Origin: an uncultured bacterium
GTDB taxonomy: Bacteria; Muiribacteriota; UBA6191; CAZXTJ01; CAYOHP01
Length of the DNA: 64,000 nucleotides
Reading direction: 5' to 3'
NCBI GenBank assembly: GCA_964403795.1
Contig: CAYOHP010000008.1
Span: forward strand, 16,987 to 80,986
The notes beneath the pieces are model-generated. The model ran no database searches. It was not told where the DNA came from and saw nothing but the letters and a program-made list of their open reading frames with translations. The position numbers and the translations under genes were made by a program. The stretch's first letter is position 1. Each line of letters begins with the position of its first letter. Positions 9,662 to 64,000 of the stretch are shown here, one piece after another.

Positions 9662-9780
9662 CTCCCTTGGAACATCGGCAGACAAGGACGGACGTCGAAG
9701 CGCACCGACCCGGCACCCCGGGGAGGGCTCGCGGTCGCGGCACCGGGAACCGCACCCGGGGGCGCGGCTCCCGGCCTTCC

Positions 9781-11028: not shown

Positions 11029-11349
11029 CCGGTTCCGAGAACCTTCGAGGCAGAAGCCGGGAGTCCGGCGTTGGGCTGCTCCTCGCACGACCCATGCCAG
11101 GACCGTCGATGCCGGACGGGGAACCTTCCGGGGATCGAGAGGTGGCTACTCAGGTTCGTGAACCGTGCCTGCCTCGGCCCATTCCGGATCGATTCAGGAT
11201 GTCAAGCCATGCGGCGAGCGTCGCCCATTTTCGCCCAATCCAAGGATCCCAGTGGCGATCCGGGCGATTCCGGGGCACACTGGAAGGGCAGGTGTCGCCT
11301 CGACTCCGCTCGCGGAGCTGGACGGCGACCGGCCCCACGGAGGTTCGAG

Positions 11350-12808: not shown

Positions 12809-14490
12809 CTACAGGCCGTGCCAGGGAGGGGGGCGACCCAGGGGGGAGAACTCCGGCCGGCGGGCCAGGTAGGTGGGGCGGTGGGCCAGGAAGGCCTTGT
12901 GCTCGGCCTTCACCGCAGCCGAGACCTTGAAGCCCCGGGGGGCCTTGTCGAGGGCGGTCCAGAGCAGCGGCATGATCCGGTGGCGGTGCCACTCCATCGG
13001 ATCCCGGTCCTGGGACCCGGGACGGGGATCAGAGGTCGCGGCCTGGTGGACGTATTCGACGAAGCGGTCGATCACCTCGTGGGCGATCACCGCCCGCTCG
13101 CCCCGGGGCAGCACCCTCCAGGCTTCCCAGAAGAGGACCCCCGGCTCCAGGAAATCGGTCTTGATCCTTCCCCCGCTCGCCTCCAGGGTCGCTGCCCGCG
13201 CCTCCCGCCGCAGCCGTCCGAGCAGCGCCGCGCCTCCATACCGGCGGACCGTCTCCTCCCCGTCCATGAGCAGGAGGTCCTGGGCCAGGGTCGGCACCAC
13301 CGTCACATGCGGGTTCGCCATCAGCCAGCGGGCGTGGTTGGTGTAGAGGAGGAGCGACTCCACGAAATCCCGGGCGCTCGACTTGCACACCTGGCCTCGA
13401 TACTCCCAGGTCGCCTCCCGGTAGACCATGGCGAGGTCCAGCGGTGCGTCGTACTCGGGCACCCGCGCCTCGTCGAGGACCTTGTCGCTCTTCACGTGGC
13501 ACTCGCCGGCGATCTGCAGCCGGTTCAGGTTCCCCTCGCCGTACCGCCCGATCTGGTCCGGCCGGTACCCGGTCTGGCGCACATGGGCCGACTGCCAGTA
13601 CCCGCAATGGATGACCTGGGCGCGCTTGCGGACCGCCCGCCCGAAGGCGAAGTTGGTCTGGAACACCTCGCGAGGCGAGCCCACCGGCCCGGTGCGCGGG
13701 TCGACCAGACCCGGAGGCGGATTGGCAGCCGGTCCCCAGCCCCGGTCCCAGATGGCGTTCTCGGACGTCAGCGTCCCCACCGCGGAAGGATGGAAGCCGC
13801 CTTCCCAGTACGCCTCGATCAGCCGACGGAAGGCGTCGTAGCGCTTGCGGGTGGCCCGGAACGGCCGGTCGTCGGGATTGGGGAAGTCCATCACGAAGCA
13901 CGAGAGCTCGGGATGGTTCAGGCGGGTGGCGATGTCGTCGACCAGGAGGCTCCCCACCATGAAGGTCTTGGCCGAGATGCTGAACTGGCAACCGCCGTGG
14001 AGCAGGGTGCCGACGAGTCCCAGGCTGGCGGGCACGTCCCAGATGTAGGCCTGCAGGAAGTCCACGAACTCGTCCAGGTGGAACCACTCGAGCGGGACCG
14101 GCTTGATCGAGAACTCGATGGTCTCGGGGTCGGTCGTGACCCTGACCTTGAGATCCCGGTGACCCGGCTCCCGGAAGCGGAACCTGAGGCCCTGGCGCCG
14201 GAATCCCCAGGGGTCCTTCTCCTTGCGCAGGTGCACGCTGCCGAACAGGCTGGTCGGGGCTCCCGCGGCCAGGTCGGCCTGGTAGCGTTCGACGATCCTC
14301 CGGGCGATCCGCTCCTGGAGCTCGAGCATGTAGGGATGCTCGAAGTAGTCGACCTCGCCGCCCTCCCGCGCCGCCAGGTGCTCCCAGAGACGCACCGTGC
14401 GCTTGGACTGGAAGGTCGGCTCCATGCCGATCCAGGCCTGGTCGAACCCCGTGGTGGTGGGTTCGTGGAAGGTCGACAGCACCGCCACCA
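12809..14490 (-). CDS. Large conserved-looking hypothetical protein (~560 aa, cytoplasmic). Function unknown.
   Basis: Long ORF with non-repetitive, balanced amino-acid composition, unlike the GC-frame noise ORFs. No family motif that I can name. Start proposed at ATG 14488-14490 (MVAVLSTFHEP). The upstream 97 codons are Lys/Arg/Gly low-complexity. Confidence 0.5.
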
Positions 14491-14762
14491 TGCGGCTGTC
14501 GTCGGCCCTGGGCCCCGCGTCGCCGTCCCGGACCGGGTGGGTCGGGGCGGCTTCCTCGAGCCTGCGCTTCCTTTCCTTCTTCCGCTTGCCGGGTCGTCCC
14601 CGCTGCTTGCCCACTCGTTTCCCTCGGACCTGGCGTGCCGGCGCCGGCGACGCTCCCGCCCCCATCGTGACCCATGGACCGGCGATCCCCAACCCCGGTC
14701 CCACCTCGAACCTTGACGGAGGCCTCGGGGGGGTGTCGAATCCGGCCCGAACGGAGGCCCCG

Positions 14763-15500
14763 GTGCCGGTCCTCGCGGTCATCCCGGCCAGGATGGAGTC
14801 CCAGCGCTACCCGGGCAAGGTCCTGGCGGACCTGCTCGGAGCGCCGATGATCCTCCACGTCCTCCGGGCCGTGCAGCAGTCCCGGCTGGTCGACAAGGTC
14901 GTGGTGGCCACCGACAGCGTCCAGGTCCAGAGCGTGGTGATCGAGAACGGCGGGGTCGCCATCATGACCCGGAGCGACCACCAGAGCGGCTCCGACCGGA
15001 TCGCCGAGGTGGCCGAGGGCCAGCCGGACTTCGACCTGATCGTGAACGTCCAGGCCGACGAGCCGATGATCAGCCCCTCGGTGGTCGACGAGCTGGTCCA
15101 GGGGTTCGGGACCGGCGAGGGTTTCGTGATGGGCACCCTGGCCCGCAAGATCTCCGATGCCTCCCAGGTGAAGGACCCCAACTCGGTGAAGGTGGTCTTC
15201 GACCGCGCCGGATCGGCCCTCTACTTCAGCCGGGCCCCCATCCCCTTCCGTCGCGGCAAGGAAGGGCCCAGCTACTACAAGCACGTCGGCGTCTACCTCT
15301 TCCGACGCGACTTCCTCCTCAAGTTCCCCACCCTGCCTCCCTCGGCCCTCGAGGCCGCCGAGAAGCTCGAGCAGCTACGGGTGCTCGAGGCCGGGTACCG
15401 GATCCGGGTCGTCAAGACCAACTACGAGAGTCACAACGTCGAGACGGCCGAGGACCTGGCGAAGGTCCGGGAGCTGATGCGGGCCAAGCGGAACCGCTAG
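14763..15500 (+). CDS. kdsB: 3-deoxy-manno-octulosonate cytidylyltransferase (CMP-Kdo synthetase).
   Basis: VLAVIPARMESQRYPGKVLADLLGAPMILHV...IVNVQADEPMI are classic KdsB motifs. Proposed GTG start at 14763. Confidence 0.85.
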   Translation: MPVLAVIPARMESQRYPGKVLADLLGAPMILHVLRAVQQSRLVDKVVVATDSVQVQSVVIENGGVAIMTRSDHQSGSDRIAEVAEGQPDFDLIVNVQADEPMISPSVVDELVQGFGTGEGFVMGTLARKISDASQVKDPNSVKVVFDRAGSALYFSRAPIPFRRGKEGPSYYKHVGVYLFRRDFLLKFPTLPPSALEAAEKLEQLRVLEAGYRIRVVKTNYESHNVETAEDLAKVRELMRAKRNR

Positions 15501-15543
15501 TCCCGGATCCAGGATCCGGGGCCCGACCCCGGGAGAGGCGAGA

Positions 15544-16425
15544 ATGAAGATGCGAACCCGCAGCGTCCGGATCGAGGGCTTCGACATCGCCATCGGGAGC
15601 GATCATCCGTTGTGCGTGATCTCCGGGCCCGACGTGCTCGAGGACCTCGACTCGGCGCTGGTGATCGCCCGCAACGTGAAGTCGCTCTGCGACCGGCACG
15701 GGTTCGGCTACGTCTTCAAGGCCAGCTACGACAAGGGCAACCGGGCCAAGTCGGGGAGCTACCGCGGTCCGATGCTCGAGAAGGGTCTCGCCCTCCTCTC
15801 CCGGGTCCGGGACGAGGTGGGATGCCCGGTGCTCACCGACGTCCACTCGGTCGAAGAGGCGGCGGTGGCCGGCGAGGTCGTCGACATCGTGCAGGTTCCC
15901 GCGTTCCTCTGCATGCAGACGGAAGTCGTGCACGCGGCGGCCCGCACCGGCAGGGTCGTGAACCTGAAGAAGGGGCAGTTCCTCGACCCCTGGGCGGCCC
16001 AGTCGCTCGCCGCCAAGGCCATGGAGACCGGCAACGACAAGATCCTGCTGACCGAGCGGGGCACCACCTTCGGCTACCAGAACCTGGTCTCCGACATCCG
16101 GTGCCTGCCGATCATGCGCAGCACCGGCTGCCCGGTGGTCTACGACCCGACCCACATCATCCGGCGGCCCGGCCTCCCGGCCAGCGCTCCCGAGGGCGGC
16201 CAGCCCGAATTCGTCCCCCATCTGACCCGGGCCGCGGTGGCGGCCGGGGTCGACGCCTTGTTCCTGGAGACCCATCCCGAGCCGCGTCTCGCCGGCTGCG
16301 ACCAGTCGAGCATGCTGCGGCTCTCCTACATGCCCGAGATCCTGGACCAGGCGGCCCGGCTCCACGCCCTGGTGCGGGAGTGGGACCTGGGGATCCGCGG
16401 CCGGGACCAGTACGGCTTCGTCTGA
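15544..16425 (+). CDS. kdsA: 3-deoxy-8-phosphooctulonate (Kdo8P) synthase, paralog 1.
   Basis: GYVFKASYDKGNRAKSGSYRGP (KxNR motif), QVPAFLCMQTE and VVYDPTHI match KdsA along its full length. Confidence 0.85.
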   Translation: MKMRTRSVRIEGFDIAIGSDHPLCVISGPDVLEDLDSALVIARNVKSLCDRHGFGYVFKASYDKGNRAKSGSYRGPMLEKGLALLSRVRDEVGCPVLTDVHSVEEAAVAGEVVDIVQVPAFLCMQTEVVHAAARTGRVVNLKKGQFLDPWAAQSLAAKAMETGNDKILLTERGTTFGYQNLVSDIRCLPIMRSTGCPVVYDPTHIIRRPGLPASAPEGGQPEFVPHLTRAAVAAGVDALFLETHPEPRLAGCDQSSMLRLSYMPEILDQAARLHALVREWDLGIRGRDQYGFV

Positions 16426-21935: not shown

Positions 21936-24224
21936 TCAACCGCCGATCAGGTAGATCCGCGCCAACCGCCCCAGGGCGATGGCCGCGATCGCGAACACCA
22001 GCATCTGGAAATAGCCGATCGCCACCTGCGCCGGGGTGAGCGCCTGGGTGGTGCGGGTGGCCGCGGTCGTCTTCCCGGATCCCCCGGGCGGCGAGGTAGC
22101 GGGGGCCGAGCGGGGACCGGTGCCGGGCGAGGGCTCGAAGTAGGTGGAGCGCTCCACCGCCAGCTGCTGGTCCTCGCCTGAGACCTGGCGGGCTCCCTCC
22201 AGGGCCAGCGCCGCCTCCTCCTCGGAGAGCATGGCGCTGCCACCGAGCTTGGGTTGGGGCAGGGCGGTGGAGGCCCGGATCCGATCGCCGCCGTAGGCCT
22301 CCTTGTTCCGGTTTCGCCCGCTGGCCGCAAGGGGGGGCATGAGCCCCGCCGCCTCCTGCGCCTTGCCGGCGATCTCGGCCGAGGTCTCGGTCCGGCTCTC
22401 GGACCGGCCACCGCCCCCCACCGCGGCCTGCTTCGAGCTCGCCTCCCGGAACGCCTCGCCCAGTGCCTTGGCGAGCGGCTCGAGCAGGCTCGCCTCGGTG
22501 GCCATCACGGCGGTCTCGGCGACCACCCGGGCGACCTGGGCGGCAGCCAGGAAGGACTCCTCGTCCCGACCTCCCACCAGTACCCCGAGCTCGGTCAGGT
22601 CGGTGTCGCCCAGGATCCAGCGCCGCAGCGCCCCGTAGGCACGGACCCCGGCGTCCCGGCTCTTCCCCAGTCGCTCGGCTTCCGGCGACCGCAACAGGGC
22701 CGTCGCCAGCGCCCGGGCCGCGGCGCGGGCCGCCGGCCCTCCCAGCTCGACCGCTCCCTCCAGGGCCCCGGCCGCCGACGCAGCCTCGGGTCCGAGCTGG
22801 CCGAGGCTGTCGGCGAGCACCACCCGGGTCTCGACGTCCTGGGACTTCTGGAGCGCCTTGCCGAGCACCCCGGCGCACCCCCTCCGGGCACTGGGATGGA
22901 CCCCCGACAGGAACCAGGCAGCCGTCCGGCACGCCACCGGATCGTCCAGTTCGAGGAGCTTCGAGAGGTAGGCGGCCGCCTGGGGATCGTCGGTCGCCCG
23001 TCGTCCCAAGGCCCGGATGGCCTGGATCCGCATGGCGCCCGGGGACGCCTTGGAGACCACGGTGGCGAGGATGGCCGAGGACTGCGGGTAGTCCATGTAG
23101 GCCAGGCAGTGGATCCCCTGGAGCAGCTCCTGGGGATTGCCGGAGGCCAGCAGGTCCTTGACCCGACGCACCGCCCGGCGGGGGTCGAGCAGCGTGGTCG
23201 CCAGGGCCACGTTCATCGCCAGCTTGGGATGGCGGGTGTCGAGCAGGGCCAGGACCTTCTCGGAATACTGCTCCGGCGGGACCGGGAGCTTGACCAGGGT
23301 CTCGACCGCGGCGGCCTGCACCACCGGGTTCGAAGTGGCCAGCGCCTCCATCGCCATCTCGAAGCCCTGGCGTTCGCCGGCGGCGGCCACGGCCTGCAGG
23401 CAGGCCACCCGCGCCAGCGGATGGTCGAGCCCGCGGAACACCGAGCCGATCCGGCGGGTGAGCTCGGCGCCCCCGAGCCGCCCCATGGTCTCCACGCTCT
23501 GGATCACGGTCCAGGGATCCCGGGACTCGAGCAGGCGGGTCAGGACCTTCTGGTAGTCGTAATCCCCGAAGCCCTCCATGGCGTAGGCGATCCAGGGCCG
23601 GACCTTTTCCTCCCGGTCGACCAGGCCGGAGAGGTACTCGAAGGCCGGACGGCTGGGAACTCCGCGGAACGCCTGGACCAGACCCGAGAAGACCGGGGTG
23701 CCGGAGCGCTTGGTGGCCAGGTCCATGGCCCGGCCGGCCGCCTCGTCGCCCCCGAAGACCGCATAGGCCGCCATGCACAGCGGTGCCATGGCCCCGGGTC
23801 CCGAGACCTCCTGGATGGCCTCCAGGCTGGCCGGGATCCGGATCCTCCCCAGCACCCGGAGCGCCGCCACCGAACGGCGTCCCCCGGCCCGGGCCTGGTT
23901 CTGGAGGGGCGGTACCAGGGTCGCCAGGCTGGAGGCCGCGGCCTGCTCGACGTCGCCGCCATCGACCTTGACGCGGGTGGCGCCGGCGTCGGCATGCCCG
24001 AGGAAGCGGGTCCAGTTGCCGGCCTCCCGGGGCGGATCGCCCCCGGCCCGGAGCAGCCCGTCCTCCAGGCGGCGGCTCCAGAACACGTCCTCGGCCAGCC
24101 GGGCGGAGTCGGCGACCTCCCCGGACTCGGCGGCCTCCAGCAGGTCGAGGGCCACCGCACTGTCGACGGTGATGGGCTGGCGCTCCAGCCTCCGGAGCAG
24201 GAAGGCCTTCGCCATGGTCCCCTG
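21936..24224 (-). CDS. HEAT/PBS-lyase-type repeat protein with a C-terminal TM anchor.
   Basis: Many degenerate alpha-helical repeats of the form D/NPxVRxxAaxaLgxig. The C-terminal hydrophobic segment reads IGYFQMLVFAIAAIALG. ATG proposed at 24222-24224; the ORF track's TTG at 24263 is also possible. Confidence 0.55.
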   Translation of the reverse strand, partial: QGTMAKAFLLRRLERQPITVDSAVALDLLEAAESGEVADSARLAEDVFWSRRLEDGLLRAGGDPPREAGNWTRFLGHADAGATRVKVDGGDVEQAAASSLATLVPPLQNQARAGGRRSVAALRVLGRIRIPASLEAIQEVSGPGAMAPLCMAAYAVFGGDEAAGRAMDLATKRSGTPVFSGLVQAFRGVPSRPAFEYLSGLVDREEKVRPWIAYAMEGFGDYDYQKVLTRLLESRDPWTVIQSVETMGRLGGAELTRRIGSVFRGLDHPLARVACLQAVAAAGERQGFEMAMEALATSNPVVQAAAVETLVKLPVPPEQYSEKVLALLDTRHPKLAMNVALATTLLDPRRAVRRVKDLLASGNPQELLQGIHCLAYMDYPQSSAILATVVSKASPGAMRIQAIRALGRRATDDPQAAAYLSKLLELDDPVACRTAAWFLSGVHPSARRGCAGVLGKALQKSQDVETRVVLADSLGQLGPEAASAAGALEGAVELGGPAARAAARALATALLRSPEAERLGKSRDAGVRAYGALRRWILGDTDLTELGVLVGGRDEESFLAAAQVARVVAETAVMATEASLLEPLAKALGEAFREASSKQAAVGGGGRSESRTETSAEIAGKAQEAAGLMPPLAASGRNRNKEAYGGDRIRASTALPQPKLGGSAMLSEEEAALALEGARQVSGEDQQLAVERSTYFEPSPGTGPRSAPATSPPGGSGKTTAATRTTQALTPAQVAIGYFQMLVFAIAAIALGRLARIYLIGG

Positions 24225-24287
24225 GGAGCCGTAGGACCAGAGGATCTCGTCGAGCTGGCGCAACCCCTTGCCTCCCCTGGCGTTCGC

Positions 24288-24740: not shown

Positions 24741-25907
24741 TCAGGGATTGTCGATGGACAGGACCTTCACGTCACCCTCGAGCACGTCGACGGTGGGCAT
24801 GCGCCCGGCGCCGGCCATCTCGAGGGTGGCCATGGTGACCCCGCCCCTGCGGGTGAAGTCGACCACCTTCAGGTCGTCCCCGTTGGTCCGCGCCATGAAC
24901 ACCGCCACGTCGTGCCGGGGACCGTGTCGCAGCGGCTGGAAGGTGGGATCGGCCCGGTGGAAGGTCATCTTCCCCTTGCGCAGCCGGCCCATCAGGGCGT
25001 TGCCCATGCGATAGAAGCTGAACTCGGTCCCGGACTCGAAGCGCAGCCAGCCGGTGTGCCGGAGGTGGAGGATGGCGTAGCCGGTGCCCACGGTCAGCAC
25101 CAGCGGGTTCTGCCAGTCGCGCCCCGGGGCATCCCAGTCGATCTCCTTGTTCCACCAGGTGGCGTCGACCAGGGCCCCGTCCAGCAGGACCTGCCCCGCG
25201 GTCGCCTCGGCGACGTGGAACTCCCGGTTGTACTTGGCGTTGACGTGGTCCTGGTTCTCGTAGAGGAACTGCTGGGCGGCCCGGGCCATCATGGCGTAGC
25301 GGAAGACCCGGATGGCATCCACCGCCAGCTCTTGGTTGGAGGTCACCAGTCCGAGCAGGGCCCCGCCGTAGGCCAGGCCGTTCAGGATGCCCCGGGTCAC
25401 CCCCAGGAAGGTCCGCTTCTTGCGATGGTCGTACTCGACCGCGAACTCGGTGCCCCGCACCCCGGCCACGACGGTGGGAGCCCGGACGTTGAAGGGGCTC
25501 GCCTCGTGCTCCGCGGGGGGCCGCCGGGTGACCTGGCAGACGACCTTGCCCAGGCTCTCGGAGAACATCCCGACCCAGCTCGTCTGGTCCTGGTTCTCGG
25601 GGATGTCGGGGATCTCGAGCATGGTGTTCTCGGAGACCGCGACCGAATCCTGGCCGCCTTCCTTGTTGTAGAACACCACCTCGCAACTCGACCCGGGACC
25701 GGTCCGCACCCGGTCCCCCATCTGCACCGGCACCTCGCCGGCCAGCGGTCCCTTCCACCGGTTGAAGGCCGCGGCGTAGATCTCGACTTTGCCCCTGGGC
25801 TTGGTGATCCGCCCCCGCGCCGTGCCCTGGGCGATCGCCTGGGGAACCGCAGCCACCGTCAACCAGACCGCAGCGAGCGCCAACCCGACGATGCCAGAGG
25901 TCTTCAC
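24741..25907 (-). CDS. Secreted FecR-domain protein, the partner of the CHASE2 cyclase.
   Basis: Signal peptide (GIVGLALAAVWLTVAAVPQAIAQG), then a FecR-like region (GRITKPRGKVEIYAAAFNRWKGPLAGEVPVQMGDRVRTGPGSSCEVVF). The GTG start at 25905-25907 overlaps the cyclase gene stop (GTGA). The 5' 350 codons of ORF 24741..26957 are noise. Confidence 0.6.
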   Translation of the reverse strand: MKTSGIVGLALAAVWLTVAAVPQAIAQGTARGRITKPRGKVEIYAAAFNRWKGPLAGEVPVQMGDRVRTGPGSSCEVVFYNKEGGQDSVAVSENTMLEIPDIPENQDQTSWVGMFSESLGKVVCQVTRRPPAEHEASPFNVRAPTVVAGVRGTEFAVEYDHRKKRTFLGVTRGILNGLAYGGALLGLVTSNQELAVDAIRVFRYAMMARAAQQFLYENQDHVNAKYNREFHVAEATAGQVLLDGALVDATWWNKEIDWDAPGRDWQNPLVLTVGTGYAILHLRHTGWLRFESGTEFSFYRMGNALMGRLRKGKMTFHRADPTFQPLRHGPRHDVAVFMARTNGDDLKVVDFTRRGGVTMATLEMAGAGRMPTVDVLEGDVKVLSIDNP

Positions 25908-28846
25908 TTGTGCTCCATGGTCCACACGCCGTCCCAGTCCCCCCGGGGAGGATGTTCCCTGAGCAGCGTAATCCGCTCCAGGTAGCGCATGGAAGGCGCA
26001 TCGCCGGGCCGGACCTCGAGCACCCGCCCGAATCCCGCCTCGGCCTCGTCCCAGGCCTGGGCCCGGTAGGCGGAGAGGGCCGCCTCCCAGGGCGAGAGCA
26101 GGCCGTCGTGGTTCCCCTCGCCCTTCTCGGCCAGCACCTCGAAGACGCTCGCCGGGATCGTCTTGCCCTTGACCCGGACCCGGTCGAGCTCCCGCATCAC
26201 CAGCTCGGCACCGGCGACCCGGGCGGTGTTCTCCCCGATCATCAGGTAGGTCCCGTACTCCTTGTTCAGCGCCTCGAGGCGGGCCGCCAGGTTCACCGCG
26301 TCCCCCAGCACCGTGTAGTTCTTCTTCCGCTCGGTGCCGACGTTCCCGACCACCACCGAGCCGGTGTTGATGCCGATCCTGGTCTTGACCTCGGGAAGGT
26401 CGCGGGCCCTCCACACCTTGCGGAGCGCCTCCTCGCGGGCCTTGAGCTCCAGGGCCGCCAGGCAGCAGCGCACCGCGTGGTCCGGCTGGTGGCGGGGGGC
26501 GTTGAAGACGCAGACGATGGCGTCCCCGATGAACTTGTCGACCCAGCCGCCGTAGCGCATCAGCACATCCGACATGGCGGTCAGGTACTCGTTCATGAAC
26601 ACCACAAGCTCGGGCGGGGTCATCTTCTCGGAGAATCCGGAGAAGCCCTCGATGTCCGAGAAGTAGCAGGAGACGTCGCGCTGGGTCCCCCCCAGGGCCA
26701 CCGCCGCCGGGCTCGCCTCCAGCTCCGAGACGATGTCGGGATCGAGGTAGTGCTGGAACATGGCCCGGATCTCCCGGCGCTTCCGCTCCACGGTGGCGTA
26801 GTTCCAGGAGAGCAGCGCCAGGCAGGTCCCGGCGAGCGCGATCACGGGCAGACCGACGTGGACCCATCGCCCTGCCACCAGCAGCCGGTACCCGATCTCG
26901 TAGCCGGCGGCGACCAGGGCCAGGACCAGCCCGAGGTGGCGCACCCTCTGGAACCACAGGGCGGTGGCGACGCAGAGCACCACCAGCCAGGGGAGCAACG
27001 AGAGCTGCCCGGAAGCCCGCTCCCGGAAATCGGGCGCTCCCATCTCGAGGAGGCCGGTGGGCGCCTCCCGGAGGGAGCCGGAGATCAAGGTATGGACCGC
27101 GTGCCCATGCACCTCGACCCCCGGGGTCCGGTTCCGGCCGCGGCGGGCGGTGGCGGAGAAGAAGCCCGCCTGGTCGAAGGGGGTTCGATGGAAGTCCTGG
27201 GACAGCTCGGTGACGTCCCCTACCAGCACGATGGCGTCCTGGAAGATGGTGGCCGTCTCCACCTCGAGGTGGCCGCGGTGCCCGGTGCGGGGATCCTCGA
27301 CCAGCACGGTCCTGCGACCCGCGGCGGTGTCGGGCAGCGGCCCGGGCCGAGGCGCGTAGGGGGGTGCCGGGAGGGTACGGTCCACCGCCAGCAGCGCCAG
27401 GGGCCCTTCCCCTCCTTCCACCCGGATCGCGGGAGGCTCGCGACGGGACCCGGCCCGCCGCGGTGCCCGGGCCGCCACCACGATCTCGTCGGAAAGCACC
27501 GGGACGGGATCGCCCCCCGCCTCGACCAGGACGTCCTCGCTGGCCAGGGGCGGGGTCTGGAACCCGCCGTCCGGTCCGGTGGCCACCTCGACCCGCTCCC
27601 GGTAGACCAGGTCGGCCAGGTAGCGGTCGCCCTCGAAGACCACGGCGCGATCGGCCAGGGCGACGTCGAGCCGACCGCGGATCACGCGGCTGGGCGACGG
27701 GAGCTCCACCGACACCTCACCGGCCGTGGCGGCCACATTGCTGCGGGTCGCCACCCCGAAGGCCCTCGGCCCCAGGGTGCGTCCCACCCACAACGCGTAG
27801 GGACCTGGCGACAACCCGGAGAGGACGACCTTGCCGCGTCCCCGCGCCGAGGCCCACACGCCGTCCCCCTCGGGGAGCGCGAGCACGTCGAGGTCTTCGT
27901 CGGCCGGGGCCAGGACCACCGTCAGCGAGTGGGGACCGGGCGGAGCCAGCACCGCGCGGGTCGGGTGGATCCGGCCGGACTCGAGCAGGAGTTCCTGGCC
28001 GCCCGAGCCGGCCTCCTCGTTGAGCAGGTCGGCCACCGAGACCGTGGGGATGGTCCCGCCCGGTCCCAGGAACGAGATCGGGTAGCGGCCGAAGCGGTCG
28101 ACCTCGAGCTCCCGCCCCCAGGGCAAGGTCACCCGCCCGGTGGCGAAGGCTGCTTCCGCCGGCGACCCGGGAGGAGGTGCCGAGGGTCCCCGCAGGACCA
28201 GGTCGGCGAGCTGGAGATCGAGCGAGGCGAGGGTCTGCATCCCGGGCGTCATCAGCCAGGAGGAGCCGTAACGGAGGCAGCCGTCCCGATCCTGGAAGGT
28301 GTTGACGTGGCCCACCCGGGCGACCTCGGAGAGCTCGGGCAGCGGCAGCACCAGGTCGATCCTGGAACTGGTCCCGAACGACCCGCCCACCACGCCCCGC
28401 TCTCGCTCCGCCGCCAACACCGTGTCGCGCCGGAGCGAAAGGACCCGGATCAACTCGTCGGTCCCGGGCCGCGGCATGTCCATCACCACGTCGAACCCGA
28501 TCGCCTTGGCGCCACGCTCCCGGAGCCTCTCCACGATCCGGGCATAGACTTCGCGGCTCCACGAGCCGGGCGCGAAGCCCCATCGTTTCTGGACCAGGCG
28601 ATTGGCCTCGTCATCGATCCCGAGGACGACCACGCGGGGATCGCCGGGCCGGCGGGGGATCACCCCCCGACGTTGGATCCAGGAACGTTCGAGGGCCAAC
28701 TCGAGGTCGAGGAACGGCGCCGGGAAGACCACCGCTGCCAGCCAGGTCGCGAACGCGACCAGGGTCCCCGCGACCACGGCGATGGCGGCCCGCTCCTCGC
28801 GGGGGGCGGAAAGCGACGCGGCCTCTCCGCCGGACGAGACGCTCAT
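25904..28846 (-). CDS. CHASE2-sensor adenylate/guanylate cyclase (class III nucleotidyl cyclase), with a large insertion in the periplasmic part.
   Basis: N-terminal TM plus CHASE2 hallmark (PRVVVLGIDDEANRL...REVYARIVERLRERGAKAIGFDVVMD). About 450 aa of extra periplasmic sequence follows, then TM helices. The C-terminal CYCc domain reads SCYFSDIEGFSGFSEKM...FIGDAIVCVF...IGINTGSVVVGNVGTERKKNYTVLGDAVNLAARLEA. ATG at 28844-28846. Confidence 0.8.
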   Translation of the reverse strand: MSVSSGGEAASLSAPREERAAIAVVAGTLVAFATWLAAVVFPAPFLDLELALERSWIQRRGVIPRRPGDPRVVVLGIDDEANRLVQKRWGFAPGSWSREVYARIVERLRERGAKAIGFDVVMDMPRPGTDELIRVLSLRRDTVLAAERERGVVGGSFGTSSRIDLVLPLPELSEVARVGHVNTFQDRDGCLRYGSSWLMTPGMQTLASLDLQLADLVLRGPSAPPPGSPAEAAFATGRVTLPWGRELEVDRFGRYPISFLGPGGTIPTVSVADLLNEEAGSGGQELLLESGRIHPTRAVLAPPGPHSLTVVLAPADEDLDVLALPEGDGVWASARGRGKVVLSGLSPGPYALWVGRTLGPRAFGVATRSNVAATAGEVSVELPSPSRVIRGRLDVALADRAVVFEGDRYLADLVYRERVEVATGPDGGFQTPPLASEDVLVEAGGDPVPVLSDEIVVAARAPRRAGSRREPPAIRVEGGEGPLALLAVDRTLPAPPYAPRPGPLPDTAAGRRTVLVEDPRTGHRGHLEVETATIFQDAIVLVGDVTELSQDFHRTPFDQAGFFSATARRGRNRTPGVEVHGHAVHTLISGSLREAPTGLLEMGAPDFRERASGQLSLLPWLVVLCVATALWFQRVRHLGLVLALVAAGYEIGYRLLVAGRWVHVGLPVIALAGTCLALLSWNYATVERKRREIRAMFQHYLDPDIVSELEASPAAVALGGTQRDVSCYFSDIEGFSGFSEKMTPPELVVFMNEYLTAMSDVLMRYGGWVDKFIGDAIVCVFNAPRHQPDHAVRCCLAALELKAREEALRKVWRARDLPEVKTRIGINTGSVVVGNVGTERKKNYTVLGDAVNLAARLEALNKEYGTYLMIGENTARVAGAELVMRELDRVRVKGKTIPASVFEVLAEKGEGNHDGLLSPWEAALSAYRAQAWDEAEAGFGRVLEVRPGDAPSMRYLERITLLREHPPRGDWDGVWTMEHK

Positions 28847-28882
28847 TTCCGCCCGAGAGTACCATGCACTAGCATTGCCGCC

Positions 28883-29821
28883 ATGTCGGCTCGGGTCGCC
28901 CGTTTCCTCGCCCTCTCCGTGGCAGTCCCCCTGGCGCTCCTGCCGTTCCGGATCCAGGAGTTCCTGGCCCGCCTGGCCGCCGCCGTCCTGCGCCTCTCCC
29001 TGCCCCGACGGATCGCCATCGCCCGCCGCAACCTGGCGATCGCCTTCCCCGAGCTCGAGCCCTCCGAGCGGGAGCGACTCCTCGACCGCCACTTCCGGCA
29101 CCTGGGCCGTCTGGTGGTCGACACCCTTCAGCAGCCGGCCTTCCGGTTCCGGAGCCTGCTCTGGCAGAAGGTCCATCCGGTGGGCTGGGGCCATCTCGAG
29201 GACGCGCTCCGGAAGGGTCCGAGCGCCATCCTGCTCTGCGCCCACCTCGGCTCATGGGAGATCGGCGCGGCGGTGGCGACCCTGCCGGGGGTGCGCCTGC
29301 TCTCGGTCTACAAGCCGTCCCGGCGGGGCTTCGCCGACGCCTTCGTGGCGGCCCTGCGCGAGGGCCTCCCCCAGGTGCTGCTCCCCAAGCAGGACGCGCT
29401 GCGCCCCCTGGTCCAGGGGGCCCGCTCCGGCGCCCTGCTCGGCCTGATCGCCGACCAGGGCGGTCTCGAGGAGTACACCTTCTTCGGGCGGCCGGCCCGG
29501 TTCCCGGAGGGTCCCGGCCACTTCGCAGCCAGGTTCGGCAGCCTCCCGGTTCCGTGCTTCTCGATCCGACGCGACGACGGCAGCTACGACTGCCATTGCC
29601 TGCCGCCGCTCTCCCTCCCCGAAGGCCGCGGCCGGGAGGCCAAGCGCCGGGTCATGACCGAGTACGTGGCCTTGCTCGAGACCTGGATCCGCCGCCACCC
29701 CGAGCAGTACTACTGGGTCCACGACATCTGGCGGTCGTTCAAGGACGACGCCCCCCCTCCCGGATCCGGAGCCGAAGGCCCCGAAGGCAGCCCGGACCCG
29801 GGCACCGGTACCGCGGCATGA
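28883..29821 (+). CDS. Lipid A biosynthesis late acyltransferase (LpxL/LpxM/HtrB family).
   Basis: N-terminal TM, then the LpxL-family pattern (RRNLAIAFPELEPSERERLLDRHFRHLGRLVVDTL...ILLCAHLGSWEIG...GLIADQ). It sits next to waaA, as in many Gram-negatives. Confidence 0.7.
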   Translation: MSARVARFLALSVAVPLALLPFRIQEFLARLAAAVLRLSLPRRIAIARRNLAIAFPELEPSERERLLDRHFRHLGRLVVDTLQQPAFRFRSLLWQKVHPVGWGHLEDALRKGPSAILLCAHLGSWEIGAAVATLPGVRLLSVYKPSRRGFADAFVAALREGLPQVLLPKQDALRPLVQGARSGALLGLIADQGGLEEYTFFGRPARFPEGPGHFAARFGSLPVPCFSIRRDDGSYDCHCLPPLSLPEGRGREAKRRVMTEYVALLETWIRRHPEQYYWVHDIWRSFKDDAPPPGSGAEGPEGSPDPGTGTAA

Positions 29822-33066: not shown

Positions 33067-35151
33067 CTACGTCCCCGGGACCTCGAGGTCGAGGCCCACC
33101 CAGTAGACCGCCACGGCGGTCCACCGGGGCAGCCCGGAGAGCGGGCGGGGCACCAGCTCGACCCGGTTCTCGCCGGGGCGGATCGCCTCTCGCGGGATCC
33201 CTACCATGGCGACGTAGTCGGGCTTCTCCGGGTGCCGCCAGTCCCAGTGCTCGCCGAAGGAGAGGTCGGAGTACCAGGCGAGCGGGTACCCGTTCCAGAG
33301 CACCATCAGGCGGTAGGGCACGACCAGGTTCGAGATGGGGAGCACCAGCCGCGCCGAGGCCAACCGCTCCAGGGTCTCGGGGGGGAACCGGATCGCGAAC
33401 TTCTGCTCGCGGTGGCGATCGAGCCGGTAGGTCCCGTTGGTCATGCCCTGGAGGGCCTTGAGACCGATCCCCTCGATGTCTGAGTACTGGTCCCCCGGTT
33501 CGAACAACCAGGGGTAGCGGCGGTCCAACTCGTCCGTCCACGAGAACACCAGGTACCGCCCTCCCGTGACCAGGCCCTTCTCCGGGAGCACCCGCCCCGG
33601 GATGCTCACCTCGTTCGCCTGCCGGGTCTCGCCGGGATGGACCGCCTCGATCACCCGGGCAGCCCGGTAGGGCGGATCCTGGTTCCAAGCCTCCCAGTAC
33701 GCGTCGATCTGGCGAAGGCCCCCGATCCTGGACAGGAGCAGGCTGCGGAGTTCCCAGGAGACCTCCCGGGTGGTCGCGGCCTGGGCCAGTTCGTCCCGGC
33801 TGTCCTCGAAAGCCTGGCGCTCGGGCAGGGATTCGAAGCGGGCCAGCAGGGCCTCGAGGTTGGCCGAACGCGGGATCTGGCCCGAGCGGGCATCGAGCAT
33901 GGCCTTGGGGTAGGGATTCAGGAAGTCGGGGACCCCCTGGAGCCCCGGCAGCACTTCGCGATGGAGCGGACCCAGGATGGCCCCGGGGTCCACCGCGCCC
34001 AGGCGATCCACCCAGGTCTCGACCAGCGAACGCCGGCGGGCGACCTCGGCGGCATCCAGGGCCGGGGGCCCGGCCTGGGCCGAAGACCCTGGATCCGAGG
34101 CGGGCGACCCGGGTCCGGGCCGGAGACCCAGGACCCCGGCCGCGGCCAGGCCGAGGGTGCAGACCAGGCCCAGGATGATCCCGTTCCGGTGGGACGGTCC
34201 CGTGGCCGGGACCGCCGACATCGAGGAGGTGGCGGCCAGCGGCGATCCCGAGGAGGAGGCGGAGGCAGAGGCGGAGCGCCCCGGGACACGACCCGAGGGC
34301 GGGGTGATGGGGCGACTGACCACCGTCAGCTTGCCGCGGTCGGCCTCGCCGGGTAGGTCCGGGCCGGCGGTACCCGAGAGCAGGGCGAGCAGTTCCGGGA
34401 TCCCGGCCCTGCGGGCCGGATCGGGTTCGAGGGCCCGCCGGATCGCCCGCTCCGCGGTCCCCAGGTTCACAACCTTCCCGTAGGCTCCCTTGCGCTTGGC
34501 ATCGAGCATCTCGGAGACGGTCCCCCCATGGGGCGCCCTCCCGGTGCGCAGTGCGAAGAGGAGACAACCCCACGAGTAGAGGTCCGACATGGGTGTGGCG
34601 ACCTCGCCGAGCATGACCTCGGGAGCCATGTACTCGGGGGTCCCGAGGATCACCCCGGTGGCGGTGTGGACCCCGCTGCCCTTGGTCTTGGCCAGACCGA
34701 AGTCCGAGATCAGGGCCGTGCCTTCGCGGGTCAGCAGGACATTGCCGGGCTTGAGATCGCGGTGGACGATCCCCGCCTCGTGGACCGCACCCAGTCCCTC
34801 CAGGGTCTGGCGGGCCAGGTCGAGGGCGACCTCCTCGCCGGGGATGCCCCGCAGGATGCGGTCCGCCAGGCTGCCCCCCTCGGCGACCTCGGTGACCAGG
34901 TACGGGCGCCCTTCGTAGACGCCGAAAGCCATGATCTGAAGCACGTTGGGGTGCTTGACCCGGGCCAGGACCCGGGCCTCCTCCCCGAAACGGGCCGGGT
35001 CGGCGAGCGGCCCCTTGGGCTCGAGGACCTTGACCGCCACGGGACGTCCGAGTTCCAGGTCGAAGCAGCGGAACACCATGGCCGCAGCACCCGTCCCGAG
35101 CTTGCGCTCGAGGCGATAGCGATCTGCGATCACGGTCCAGGCTCCGGACAT
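33067..35151 (-). CDS. Hanks-type Ser/Thr protein kinase with a TM segment and a large extracytoplasmic C-terminal domain.
   Basis: Kinase subdomains: GTGAAAMVF (Gly loop), AVKVL (Lys), HRDLKPGNVLL (catalytic loop), DFG, and GTPEYMAPE. There is a TM at about residue 320 (IILGLVCTLGLAAAGVLGL), then ~370 aa of unknown sensor domain. Confidence 0.85.
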   Translation of the reverse strand: MSGAWTVIADRYRLERKLGTGAAAMVFRCFDLELGRPVAVKVLEPKGPLADPARFGEEARVLARVKHPNVLQIMAFGVYEGRPYLVTEVAEGGSLADRILRGIPGEEVALDLARQTLEGLGAVHEAGIVHRDLKPGNVLLTREGTALISDFGLAKTKGSGVHTATGVILGTPEYMAPEVMLGEVATPMSDLYSWGCLLFALRTGRAPHGGTVSEMLDAKRKGAYGKVVNLGTAERAIRRALEPDPARRAGIPELLALLSGTAGPDLPGEADRGKLTVVSRPITPPSGRVPGRSASASASSSGSPLAATSSMSAVPATGPSHRNGIILGLVCTLGLAAAGVLGLRPGPGSPASDPGSSAQAGPPALDAAEVARRRSLVETWVDRLGAVDPGAILGPLHREVLPGLQGVPDFLNPYPKAMLDARSGQIPRSANLEALLARFESLPERQAFEDSRDELAQAATTREVSWELRSLLLSRIGGLRQIDAYWEAWNQDPPYRAARVIEAVHPGETRQANEVSIPGRVLPEKGLVTGGRYLVFSWTDELDRRYPWLFEPGDQYSDIEGIGLKALQGMTNGTYRLDRHREQKFAIRFPPETLERLASARLVLPISNLVVPYRLMVLWNGYPLAWYSDLSFGEHWDWRHPEKPDYVAMVGIPREAIRPGENRVELVPRPLSGLPRWTAVAVYWVGLDLEVPGT

Positions 35152-35234
35152 CGGGTCCGGCCAGTGTAGCCCCGGCCTACCGCTCTCCCCCTTCCCGGGC
35201 TACGCTCGGCCCCGATCGGAAGGGAGGGGAACCC

Positions 35235-59110: not shown

Positions 59111-60559
59111 ATGGAGACCCCGATCGCAGGCCGCCGTCCCCAGCGGGCCGCGACCGCCACCAAGGCCTTCGGAACCGGCCGGCGCGAGAGCCACGACGCG
59201 TCCCCGTTCTACGCCCGCTTCGAAGCTCCCGAGATGCGCCGGTCCGACGACCTCGACCCGGAGCCCCGGAGGGTGTCCGAGCCATGCGTCCTGGGCGACT
59301 CCCGTCGGCTCCTCGACCATGTGCGCCCGGCTTCGGTGGCGCTGGTGGTGACCTCACCTCCCTACTTCGCCGGCAAGGAGTACGAGCTGGCGCTCGGCCA
59401 GGGGCACATCCCCGGTTCCTACCTCGAGTACCTCGGGATGCTCCGGGACGTGTTCGCGGCCTCGGTCGAGGCCTTGGAACCGGGAGGCCGGATCGCCGTC
59501 AACGTCGCCAACCTGGGCCGCCGCCCCTACCGCAGCCTCTCGGCGGACGTGATCCGCATCTTCGAGGACCTGGGCCTGCTGCTCCGGGGCGAGGTGATCT
59601 GGCAGAAGGCCCAGGGGGCCACCGGGAGCTGCGCCTGGGGCTCCTTCCGCAGCCCGGTGAACCCGGTGCTCCGGGATCTCTCGGAGCGGGTGGTGATCGC
59701 CAGCAAGTGGCGGTTCGACCGGGCCGTCGCACCCGCTCTGCGGCAGGCCCGCGGCCTGCCCTGGGAAGGCTCGCTCACCGCCGACGAGTTCATGGAGGCC
59801 ACCCTCGACGTCTGGAACCTCCCCCCCGAGAGCGCCCGCAAGGTGGGTCACCCGGCGCCGTTCCCGGTCGCCCTCCCCCAGCGCCTCATCGACCTCTACA
59901 CCTACAAGGGCGACATCGTCCTCGATCCCTTCATGGGTGCGGGGAGCACCCTGGTGGCGGCGAAGCGGTCCGGGAGGCTGGGCATCGGCTTCGACACCGA
60001 CCCGGCCTACGTGGAGCTGGCCCGGGACCGCCTGCGGGACGAGCCACGCGAGCCGGGCGGGGCTCTCCACGACCGCGCGGCCGCCTCGGGACAGCCGGTC
60101 CGGACCCTGGCCGAATCGCTCCTCCGGGAGGCCGGCTTCGAGATCCTGGCGACCCGGACGCCGGTGCCGAAGTCCGGGGTGGCCCCCGATTTCGTCCTCC
60201 GCAGCACCGACGGGGGAGAGTGGTTCGCGGACCTCACCGGTTCGGTCACGGCCCGTCCGCGCTCCGGCCTCTCGACCCTGGAGACCGCCGCGGCCGCGGT
60301 GGGGCGGGCCGCGGCCCTGGCGGCTCGGGCCCCTGGCAAGCCGGTGCTGCTGCTGTCCACCGACGTTCCCTCCAAGGGGCCCGCAGCCCAGCTGCTCACC
60401 TCGGTAGGTCCCGGGATCGTGTTCGACGTCCTCGACCTGGGGTCGTCGGCAGCCCTTCAGCGTCTGGCCCGCTATGCCGCCGAGGGCGCCGAGGCCGGGC
60501 CCATTCCCGGATTCTGGAGAGGGCGCGACTTCGGACCCGGGGTCAGGTTCCGATTGTGA
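59111..60559 (+). CDS. DNA methyltransferase of the β-class (N6-adenine or N4-cytosine) with a ~180-aa C-terminal extension of unknown function.
   Basis: Motif IV VVTSPPYF precedes motif I VLDPFMGAGSTLVAA, which is the β-class order. The N-terminus may instead begin at the internal ATG near 59234. No restriction endonuclease gene is evident nearby. Confidence 0.7.
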   Translation: METPIAGRRPQRAATATKAFGTGRRESHDASPFYARFEAPEMRRSDDLDPEPRRVSEPCVLGDSRRLLDHVRPASVALVVTSPPYFAGKEYELALGQGHIPGSYLEYLGMLRDVFAASVEALEPGGRIAVNVANLGRRPYRSLSADVIRIFEDLGLLLRGEVIWQKAQGATGSCAWGSFRSPVNPVLRDLSERVVIASKWRFDRAVAPALRQARGLPWEGSLTADEFMEATLDVWNLPPESARKVGHPAPFPVALPQRLIDLYTYKGDIVLDPFMGAGSTLVAAKRSGRLGIGFDTDPAYVELARDRLRDEPREPGGALHDRAAASGQPVRTLAESLLREAGFEILATRTPVPKSGVAPDFVLRSTDGGEWFADLTGSVTARPRSGLSTLETAAAAVGRAAALAARAPGKPVLLLSTDVPSKGPAAQLLTSVGPGIVFDVLDLGSSAALQRLARYAAEGAEAGPIPGFWRGRDFGPGVRFRL

Positions 60560-62610: not shown

Positions 62611-63711
62611 CTAATTCCCCGCCAGGGACTCGGTCTCCTTGGCGATGTCGCCCTTCCACATGGCGCCGTCGCGGTTGGTCTGGCCGGCCTTCTCGCGCTT
62701 GGCCTTGCGCTGGCGCTCGACCAGGTCGGCGTGGGTGGAGAAGTAGGGCAGCGCCTTGCCGACCATCTCGGCGACGCTCCGGAACCCCATCTCCTTCATG
62801 TAGCCGGCCAGGCCTTCCTGGAGGCCGGCGATCATCTCGTAGCCCTGGAGCATGGCCCCGGTGCAGATCTGCACGGTGCTCGAACCCATGAACAGGAACT
62901 GGACGCAGTCCTCCCAGGTCTCGGCCCCGCCCATGCCGGAGATCGGGGTGTCGGGGAGCGCCTTGGCGATCTCCATGACCTGGCGCAGGGCGATCGGCCG
63001 GACCGCCTGGCCCGAGTACCCGCCCGGCACCGTGTAGCCCTCGACGGTCGGCATGGGCCGGAGGGTCTTCAGGTCGATCCCGATCACGCACAGGATCGTG
63101 TTGATGGCCGAGATGCCGTCTGCCCCGCCCTTCACGGCTGCGGCGGCCGGCTCGGCGATGTGCCCGACGTTGGGGGTCATCTTCGCCCAGACCGGGATCT
63201 TGGCGACTTCCTTCACCCAGCCGGTCACTTCCTCGACCAGCGAGCAGTCCTCGCCCATCGCCATGCCCATCTTGCGCTCGGGCAGGCCGTGGGGACACGA
63301 GAGGTTCAGCTCGAAGGCATCGACCCCGGTGGCCTGGGTCCGCTCCGCGATCTCCTGCCAGGCCCCCTTCGAGTACTCCTCCATGATCGAGGCGACCAGG
63401 ATGTGGTCGGGGTGCTTCTGCTTGCACTCCGCCAGGTCGTCAAGCCAGGCCTCGAAGGGGCGGTCGGAGATCAGCTCGATGTTCTCGAACCCGATCACCG
63501 CCTCGTCGGTCCGGCTCTTCAGCCGGGCGTAGCGGGGGACCGTGTTCACGACCTTGGAGTTGTCGAGGCTGATGGTCTTGCAGACGATCCCGCCCCACCC
63601 CAGGTCGAAGGAGCGGCTGATCACCTTGCCGTTGGTCCCCGGGGGGCCCGAACCGAGCACGAACGGGTTCGGGAACTTCATGCCGTTGACCACGATGCCG
63701 AGATCGGTCAT
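62611..63711 (-). CDS. Dihydroorotate-dehydrogenase-family flavoprotein (PyrD/PreA-like TIM-barrel).
   Basis: NPFVLGSGP, GGIVCKTISL, ELNLSCPH (catalytic Cys/Ser region), GISAINT and GMGGAETWED are DHOD/DHPD family motifs. There are no ferredoxin-type Cys clusters. ATG at 63709-63711. The 5' part of ORF 62611..63858 is noise. Confidence 0.7.
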   Translation of the reverse strand: MTDLGIVVNGMKFPNPFVLGSGPPGTNGKVISRSFDLGWGGIVCKTISLDNSKVVNTVPRYARLKSRTDEAVIGFENIELISDRPFEAWLDDLAECKQKHPDHILVASIMEEYSKGAWQEIAERTQATGVDAFELNLSCPHGLPERKMGMAMGEDCSLVEEVTGWVKEVAKIPVWAKMTPNVGHIAEPAAAAVKGGADGISAINTILCVIGIDLKTLRPMPTVEGYTVPGGYSGQAVRPIALRQVMEIAKALPDTPISGMGGAETWEDCVQFLFMGSSTVQICTGAMLQGYEMIAGLQEGLAGYMKEMGFRSVAEMVGKALPYFSTHADLVERQRKAKREKAGQTNRDGAMWKGDIAKETESLAGN

Positions 63712-63793
63712 GCCTCGCCCCTTTCCGGCCCCCCGAGGCGATCGCCTCGTCGAGGACTCATGCATTCCCCGGACGGTCCGGTCCCTCAGTCCG

Positions 63794-63988
63794 CTAGCTG
63801 CCCCAGATCTGGGCCCGGGCCGCGGCGATGTCCTCTTCCATGATGGTCTTGCGCCCATGGCCCCGGGCGATCACGGACGCCCGCAGGCCCAGCTTGCGCA
63901 GGAACTCGGCCGCCGCCTTGGTGGCCGCCGGGACCGAGTCCGCCGAGATCCGCATGCCCTCGGCGTCCTCCAGCACGAGCTTCTTCAC
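63794..63988 (-). CDS. Small bacterial histone-fold protein (archaeal-histone/HMf-like singlet).
   Basis: The 64-aa product ...ISADSVPAATKAAAEFLRKLGLRASVIARGHGRKTIMEEDIAAA... reproduces the histone-fold α2-L2-α3 signature of archaeal HMfB (…ITLAKILEEMGRDIASEAIKLARHAGRKTIKAEDIELA). The ATG at 63986-63988 lies inside the window, and the window ends 12 nt upstream. Confidence 0.55.
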   Translation of the reverse strand: MKKLVLEDAEGMRISADSVPAATKAAAEFLRKLGLRASVIARGHGRKTIMEEDIAAARAQIWGS

Positions 63989-64000
63989 GTGACTGGCTGC

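Follow-up and report, generated by a model that had tools for sequence, protein, structure and literature searches.

At the right-hand edge of a 64,000-nucleotide (nt) stretch of contig CAYOHP010000008.1 from an uncultured bacterium (this whole stretch is called the window in the following), a gene on the minus strand encodes a small histone-fold protein of 72 amino acids (aa). We take it for a genuine gene on the chromosome of a high-GC diderm bacterium, and its product is probably a homodimeric, non-specific DNA-binding protein of the nucleoid. HBb and HLp are the only bacterial histones that have been studied, and both are truncated in helix α3. Reviews state that histones of the nucleosomal family are restricted to archaea and that the α3-truncated family is shared with bacteria (PMC11390915; PMC12701072). 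The protein described here belongs to a full-length bacterial histone-fold family outside the α3-truncated types, which fits at best into the 'undefined' bin of Schwab et al., whose nucleosomal category is defined by the formation of (hyper)nucleosomal tetramers (PMC11390915).

The protein is recognized by two Pfam models above their cut-offs, by PF00808 (CBFD_NFYB_HMF) with 33.5 bits (cut-off 21.4, E = 5e-8) and by PF00125 (Histone) with 31.1 bits (cut-off 26.4). A structure was predicted with AlphaFold2 for a single chain of P0001, the 100-aa product called for this gene (see below), using an alignment of 120 homologues. The model shows the order α1-L1-α2-L2-α3, with a pLDDT (predicted local distance difference test) score of 91–98 over this block. 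In the model the 72-aa protein is a single histone fold with a full-length α2 (28 residues) and a full-length α3 (12 residues). For comparison, α2 and α3 of archaeal reference histones have ~28 and ~10 residues, respectively (PMC13260811; PMC11390915), whereas in α3-truncated bacterial histones α3 has only 3–4 residues and α2 is shorter by 4–5 (PMC11390915). In a Foldseek search of the PDB the Asgard histone HHoB (9qv6, 9qv5) was the best match, followed by HMfB and HMfA (template modelling (TM) score 0.84–0.85, normalized to target length; root-mean-square deviation (rmsd) 1.7–1.8 Å; for HMfB 0.84 and 1.8 Å) and then by NF-Y, H3, and H2B. The E-values were weak (~4e-3), as is usual for helical proteins of 70 residues, and all matches were histones with a probability of 1.00. 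HBb was not among the top 50 structural matches. The preliminary description of the window, made from the letters alone, had proposed a histone fold and a close likeness to the α2-loop2-α3 region of archaeal histones; profile search and predicted structure bear out both. It should be noted that this archaeal resemblance is not generic to bacterial histones: it sets the protein apart from the α3-truncated bacterial kinds.

In HMfB the fold is stabilized by a clamp between R52 and D59, and DNA is contacted by R10 and R19, which anchor in the minor groove, and by K53/T54 of L2 (PMC6136690, Henneman et al.; for R19 also PMC10627809). These functional residues are kept in the window protein as R54-D61 (R52-D59), K11 (R10), R21 (R19), and K55/T56 (K53/T54), and the spacing of 33 residues from R21 to R54 equals that from R19 to R52 in HMfB. 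The codons for R21, R54-K55-T56, D61, and W70 were checked by eye against the DNA. An alignment was made of the window protein, the two clades of relatives described below, HMfB, three archaeal-like histones from metagenome-assembled genomes (MAGs), and four α3-type bacterial histones. In it the window protein and both clades are gap-free versus HMfB from L1 to the C-terminus, whereas the α3-type proteins have a four-residue deletion in α2, no α3, and no arginine in L1. The absence of the "sprocket" arginine R19 and the presence of an S-K motif in α1 have been described for bacterial α3-truncated histones (PMC10627809).

The protein is not an isolated case. When 1.84 billion representative sequences were scanned exhaustively with HMMER, 14 proteins matched at E <= 1e-3, and the top match (72 aa) had 72% identity; a word-indexed search seeded with an alignment gave 811 proteins, and a scan of genome contigs with a five-sequence alignment gave three bacterial loci. 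The closest relatives form a clade of about 25 clusters (70–72 aa, 52–71% identical to the window protein) in which 17 positions never vary; its signature is SKVKKL...R(I/V)S...FLrKlG.RA.SIAR..GRKTIM.ED...A..Q(L/I)W. All conservation counts given here refer to 25 sequences of this close clade. R21, R54, K55, T56, and D61 are each found in 25/25, K/R10 in 25/25, and K/R11 in 24/25 sequences. In α1, S7 is present in 24/25 and K8 in 14/25, the window protein reading S7-H8; the clade has the S-K motif of the α3-truncated histones, but R21 is not lost in it. Specific to the clade is a motif at the C-terminal end of α3, composed of Q68 (23/25), L/I69 (23/25), and W70 (17/25).

A wider sister clade, 35–43% identical, consists of proteins of 70–73 aa beginning with MGELPNAVVKRLL from MAGs of Myxococcota and Deltaproteobacteria. 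Names that the Prokaryotic Genome Annotation Pipeline (PGAP) gives to some of them are 'NFYB/HAP3 family transcription factor subunit' (Deltaproteobacteria) and 'histone-like protein' (Myxococcota). The genes lie in bacterial contexts with genes for LexA, GroES, and PilZ (locus L014). As judged from sequence profiles (hhalign probability 99.5%, E = 6e-23), the close and the wider clade clearly belong to one family. The wider-clade protein of Deltaproteobacteria bacterium UBA6930 is an entry in Supplementary Table 1 of Hocher et al.; among the entries listed in the bacterial tables of these authors, which reach proteins of at least 156 aa, neither GRKTIMEED nor GRKTIMPED is found. Individual homologues differ around the fold. 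For example, the distant relative P0003 has an N-terminal domain of ~100 aa outside the assigned families, and in P0005, P0006, P0007, and P0013 α3 runs directly into a conserved segment with Cys, which reads WGGDAC in P0005 and P0006 and varies in the other two; behind it come tails that are acidic or rich in K/R. In P0009, of 155 aa, two folds occur naturally as a doublet.

From these residues the following mechanism may be proposed. The protein would form a head-to-tail handshake homodimer, as do all histone folds. In such a dimer both pairs of L1-L2 loops, together with the lysines of α1, would build up a basic ridge, which could bind the DNA backbone and the minor groove without sequence specificity, and the role of the protein would be to bend or coat DNA as a small component of the nucleoid. 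The archaeal dimer-dimer contact is a four-helix bundle to which L46, H49, D59, and L62 contribute (PMC6136690). At the equivalent positions I48 and D61 are kept, while that of H49 is S, G, or A (25/25) and that of L62 is mostly A and otherwise T, S, E, or Q. The replacement of H49 by G/S and of L62 by A makes us lean to a dimer or a non-canonical oligomer, and canonical hypernucleosome formation is not predicted from the sequence. AlphaFold3 predictions of oligomers are reported to need caution with such histones (PMC13260811).

There are points that weigh against a nucleoid protein of this kind. The net charge is only +2, and at several positions in the core of α2 the alignment shows Ala where HMfB has Leu. 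With H49 and L62 of the interface not kept, nucleosome-like wrapping is unsupported. Moreover, some histone-fold proteins are not chromatin proteins (PMC11390915).

The protein could, on the other hand, be more than a dimeric DNA binder. Its clade would be the first in bacteria with a nucleosomal type of histone if the full-length fold oligomerized on DNA, via a modified four-helix bundle or via the Q-L-W C-terminus, and wrapped it; alternatively or additionally, it could be a surviving full-length intermediate ancestral to the α3-truncated HBb and face-to-face (FtF) histones. We consider this rather unlikely. That the family might be an intermediate is suggested by the closeness of its profile to both described families and by the combination of the bacterial S-K motif in α1 with an archaeal α2, L1, and α3. 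In hhalign comparisons the clade scored 55.6 with a set of 21 archaeal nucleosomal histones and 48.3 with one of 21 bacterial α3 histones, as compared with 37.6 between the two reference sets; the sets are small and the ranking is indicative only. Hidden Markov models (HMMs) built from the archaeal nucleosomal and the α3 reference set score the clade equally (medians 26.9 and 26.8 bits). The close-clade profile in turn gave 42.9 bits with HHoB, 40.9 with HMk, 31.7 with HPhA, 27.3 with HBb, and 26.9 with HMfB. With its archaeal geometry and its bacterial α1 the family thus sits between the two described histone families.

Another function, which we think is unlikely, would be that of a local sequence-specific regulator of the NF-Y/NC2 kind that acts on the neighboring genes rather than as a global nucleoid protein. 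Of the eight close-clade contexts, five (L001, L010, L011, L012/13, and L016) have the gene oriented head-to-head with genes for PNP_UDP_1 and VitK2_biosynth, which are families of the futalosine pathway of menaquinone synthesis, and this arrangement is kept despite a protein identity of 57–64%. Histone gene and divergent futalosine genes share an intergenic region of only ~70–130 bp; MDH, Hpt, DUF423, or DHO_dh are often near in contexts of this type. The shared synteny, which points to vertical inheritance within a bacterial lineage, is the sole genomic-context support for a local regulator. It is also true that the best Pfam model is that of the NF-Y/archaeal histone family, that PGAP labels a wider-clade relative as 'NFYB/HAP3 family transcription factor subunit', and that many archaeal histones may be transcription factors (PMC13260811). 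However, the close-clade loci L005, L015, and L017 have other neighbors, with no futalosine pair, as does L014 of the wider clade, and the protein is equally conserved in them. Furthermore, NF-Y owes its specificity to hetero-pairing, NF-YB and NF-YC being an obligate heterodimer, and to NF-YA, the third subunit, which confers recognition of CCAAT. Nothing similar was seen: no second histone-fold gene was found in the 64-kb window or within 10 kb beyond. Finally, the conserved residues are those that make non-specific contacts with backbone and minor groove.

A histone fold that has lost DNA binding and serves as a protein–protein scaffold, as has been proposed for some DUF1931 or TAF-like folds, is quite improbable as well. 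The modest net charge and the alanine-rich, atypical α2 would be in line with it, and not all prokaryotic 'histones' need to organize genomes (PMC11390915). But the invariance of R21, K55, and T56 and the retention of K10 and K11 as K/R are hard to explain without DNA binding. The isoelectric points in the clade (8.3–10.3, median 9.8) are similar to that of HMfB (9.6), and Pfam gave no match to DUF1931 (PF09123) even at E <= 10. A homodimeric, non-specific DNA-binding protein remains the reading that we prefer.

The size of the protein deserves comment. Initially a 64-aa open reading frame (ORF) starting with GTG had been read at 63794–63988 of the minus strand. This ORF is in the ORF list with exactly the sequence quoted, and its translation contains the motif ARGHGRKTIMEEDIAAA; the boundary, however, has to be revised, the GTG being the codon for Val9 of the 72-aa protein. 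From base 64000 of the minus strand the frame translates as AASHVKKLV... and is free of stops up to the window edge, so that the GTG at 63988 is merely the first start-like codon inside the window. A word-indexed search with the 68-aa fragment found one identical protein, P0001 (100 aa), on seven contigs, the longest having 104,661 bp. Four Logan contigs from four independent sequencing runs match the window without mismatch over 386–3669 nt and run past its end, and they (L001) supply the DNA that the window end had cut off, with an ATG, a GGGAG, and a promoter-like element. The true start is almost certainly the ATG at L001:10085 (window-equivalent 64012..64010), 12 nt past the window edge, and the gene product almost certainly has 72 aa beginning with MAELAASHVKK, residues 5–72 being encoded in the window and the first four codons (MAEL) outside. 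The full protein is MAELAASHVKKLVLEDAEGMRISADSVPAATKAAAEFLRKLGLRASVIARGHGRKTIMEEDIAAARAQIWGS (7.6 kDa, pI 9.4, net charge +2). The thought that the frame might extend into a larger unrelated protein can be dropped, since it leaves the window by just four codons of the same small protein.

That the 100-aa product of the gene finder is real, i.e., a histone fold with an N-terminal tail of 28 residues, is very unlikely. The automated call started from an ATG in the same frame, at L001:10001, and one homologue (P0023) bears a K-rich N-terminal extension of nine residues. The 28-residue extension is, however, common to no homologue: the 24 close homologues have 70–72 aa (one has 81 aa), and most of them begin with MAEL, MPEL, or MADL. 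In L005 an in-frame TAA stands immediately 5' of the equivalent ATG. A Shine–Dalgarno sequence (GGGAG) precedes the internal ATG at L001:10085 by 4–5 nt. In the extension pLDDT is below 50, and the GC content at third codon positions (GC3) is 0.82 as compared with 0.93 for the 72 codons. The longer call would also leave just 2 bp between the divergent start codons and would place the promoter-like element TGGTACGGT inside the coding sequence. For all these reasons we take the 100-aa call as an over-extension. Two ORFs on the plus strand over the gene (63828..63992 and 63533..64000) were rejected as antisense shadows typical of a genome with 72% GC.

The element TGGTACGGT is an extended −10-like sequence, TGnTA[CG]GGT. 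Five homologous loci (L001, L010, L011, L012, and L005) have it 22–52 nt 5' of the ATG of the histone gene, and it has no copy on either strand of the 64-kb window (128 kb counting both strands). It is probably the promoter of the histone gene. A scan around the gene for sigma-70 and terminator consensus sequences gave no match.

The host is bacterial, as the preliminary description had assumed. Adjacent genes for a KdsB-like (CTP_transf_3) and a KdsA-like (DAHP_synth_1) protein at 14349–16425 (+), which belong to the biosynthesis of 3-deoxy-D-manno-octulosonate (KDO) and lipopolysaccharide (LPS), indicate a diderm bacterium. The nearest named relatives of the malate dehydrogenase (67–71% identical) are almost all from Verrucomicrobiota MAGs, and the host is probably a member of the Planctomycetota–Verrucomicrobiota–Chlamydiota (PVC) group. 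The window has 71.8% GC, and GC3 of the histone gene (0.93) is like that of the host genome. A LysM protein and the synteny described above also speak for a bacterium, and further genes of the window encode an enzyme of the 5-enolpyruvylshikimate-3-phosphate (EPSP) synthase/MurA family, which may be AroA or MurA. Also present are genes for Ser/Thr kinases, an OpuA-type transporter, and a CHASE2 cyclase. A phage origin was rejected because the protein has no relatives among the IMG/VR viral contigs. It is extremely unlikely that we are dealing with an archaeal gene without a role in the bacterium, brought in by a contaminated assembly or by horizontal transfer of very recent date. The geometry is archaeal, as are the best solved matches, and Hocher et al. 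list a few archaeal-looking histones in bacterial MAGs as possible contaminants. But the gene, with its host-like GC3, lies in a bacterial window of 64 kb and on a contig of 104,661 bp, belongs to a clade of its own (27.3 bits with the NCBIfam model of archaeal histones, NF043032 archaea_histone, below the cut-off of 50) that has the bacterial S-K motif in α1 (S7-H8 in the window protein), keeps its synteny among bacterial contigs, and has no near-identical archaeal sequence among the 811 matches.

Table 1. Features of the histone-fold gene; positions are those of the window unless a locus is named, and residue numbers are those of the 72-aa protein unless P0001 is named.
Feature	Position	Strand	Basis
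Histone-fold gene, codons 5–72 and stop	63794..64000	−	Frame, Logan contigs, Pfam PF00808/PF00125
Helix α1, residues 6–14, with S7 and basic pair K10-K11	63971..63997	−	AlphaFold2 helix 34–42 of P0001
GTG read earlier as start, codon of Val9	63986..63988	−	No upstream stop in window; V9 invariant (n = 25)
R21 of loop L1, counterpart of R19, the minor-groove 'sprocket' arginine of HMfB	63950..63952	−	Invariant (25/25); HMfB alignment
Helix α2, residues 24–51 (28 long)	63860..63943	−	AlphaFold2 helix 52–79 of P0001; no gap versus HMfB from L1 to L2
R54-K55-T56, 'RKT' DNA-contact motif of loop L2	63845..63853	−	Invariant (25/25); aligns with R52-K53-T54 of HMfB
D61, partner of R54 in the R-D clamp (D59 of HMfB)	63830..63832	−	Invariant; role from PMC6136690
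Helix α3, residues 59–70, ending with Q68-(L/I)69-W70	63803..63838	−	AlphaFold2 helix 87–98 of P0001
TAG stop codon	63794..63796	−	Read from sequence
TGnTA[CG]GGT element, TGGTACGGT	L001:10040-10051, window-equivalent ~64046-64057		Conserved in five loci

On the side of the divergent gene, a conserved sequence, CGAGGGTAC, adjoins the PNP_UDP_1 start at L001:10007-10017 and at the equivalent sites of L010 and L012. On the other strand it reads GTACCCT and contains a −10-like hexamer, TAnnnT, about 12 nt before the ATG of PNP_UDP_1, which hints that the PNP_UDP_1 mRNA may be near-leaderless. Downstream, a spacer of 82 nt (63712–63793, minus strand) separates the stop codon of the histone gene from the co-directional DHO_dh gene and holds a palindrome of 16 nt, CGAGGCGATCGCCTCG. 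Co-transcription of the two genes is possible. In its folding the spacer does not surpass shuffled controls (z = 0.30). No terminator-like site was found in it, and we make no claim of a terminator or an operon. An Rfam scan of the window gave no match.

Some other genes of the window may be mentioned. At 59111–60559 (+) an N6/N4 DNA methyltransferase domain is followed by a C-terminal region of ~150 aa without a Pfam match. The CHASE2 cyclase, at 25904–29251 (−), is a protein of 1115 aa in which a CHASE2 sensor is fused to an adenylate/guanylate cyclase domain, and several genes for Ser/Thr kinases and HEAT repeats are near it (33067–35199 and 21936–24287). An open frame of 1882 codons at 6901–12546 (+) has only a weak contrast in GC between codon positions (0.75/0.67/0.78) and overlaps a better-looking ORF on the minus strand (9781–11145, GC3 0.89). 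The long frame is probably no more than a shadow ORF of the kind seen at high GC.

A conserved, vertically inherited bacterial clade with full-length α2 and α3 and with the sprocket arginine falls outside the two-family scheme of prokaryotic histones. It offers a concrete protein with which to ask if there are bacteria that wrap DNA around histones, and it bears on the relation of the truncated bacterial forms to the archaeal histones. Should the protein be no more than a dimer that bends DNA, it would add a further nucleoid protein to those of a lineage that has not been cultured.

Of the known systems, the eukaryotic NF-YB/NF-YC, NC2, and H3 have the same Pfam family and fold (TM score ~0.55–0.6, normalized to query length). 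They are obligate heterodimers with extra helices or subunits, whereas here there is a single fold of 72 aa for which no partner was seen. The pseudodimeric DUF1931 histones differ in having two fused folds. The wider sister clade (MGELPNAVVKRLL...), which has been catalogued but never studied, resembles the close clade in length, geometry, the one-residue insertion between α1 and L1, R21, RKT, and D61; it is without the SIARS-GRKTIMEED and Q-L-W signatures and has another genomic context.

HLp from Leptospira perolatii and HTkC from Thermococcus kodakarensis, which are FtF histones, are likewise small prokaryotic histone folds with an RxTxxxxD motif, and histones of this type, too, occur in Myxococcota and in bacteria of the PVC group. 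They have, however, a truncated α3 and tetramerize via R48 and N52, which are conserved in the FtF profile (PMC11390915). At these positions the window protein and its clade have I48 (I/V in 25/25) and H, L, N, Y, or K52 (N in 4/25), and α3 is of full length.

With the archaeal histones of the HMf type (HMfB, 1A7W, 5T5K; HHoB, 9QV5, 9QV6) the likeness is greatest in size (72 versus 68–71 aa), in helix lengths, in the R-D clamp, and in the spacing from the L1 arginine to the RKT of L2; a single one-residue gap is needed, and both the best sequence and the best structure matches are of this type. The differences are an identity of only ~32% to HMfB and the bacterial host, the residues G/S and A in place of H49 and L62, with which the four-helix-bundle interface is not conserved, an α1 reading SKVKKL in the clade rather than P-I-A-P-(I/V)-x-R, the C-terminal Q-(L/I)-W, and the insertion of one residue between α1 and L1. 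The bacterial dimer histone HBb (Bd0055) from Bdellovibrio bacteriovorus (8FVX, 8CMP) has an α2 that is four residues shorter, an α3 of only a few residues, and no L1 arginine. But HBb is also a bacterial single histone fold without an extra domain, it shares the RKT-x-M-x-x-D motif, and its α1, (T/A)SKVKKL(I/V), is nearly identical, reading TSKVKKLI as compared with ASKVKKLV in the close clade.

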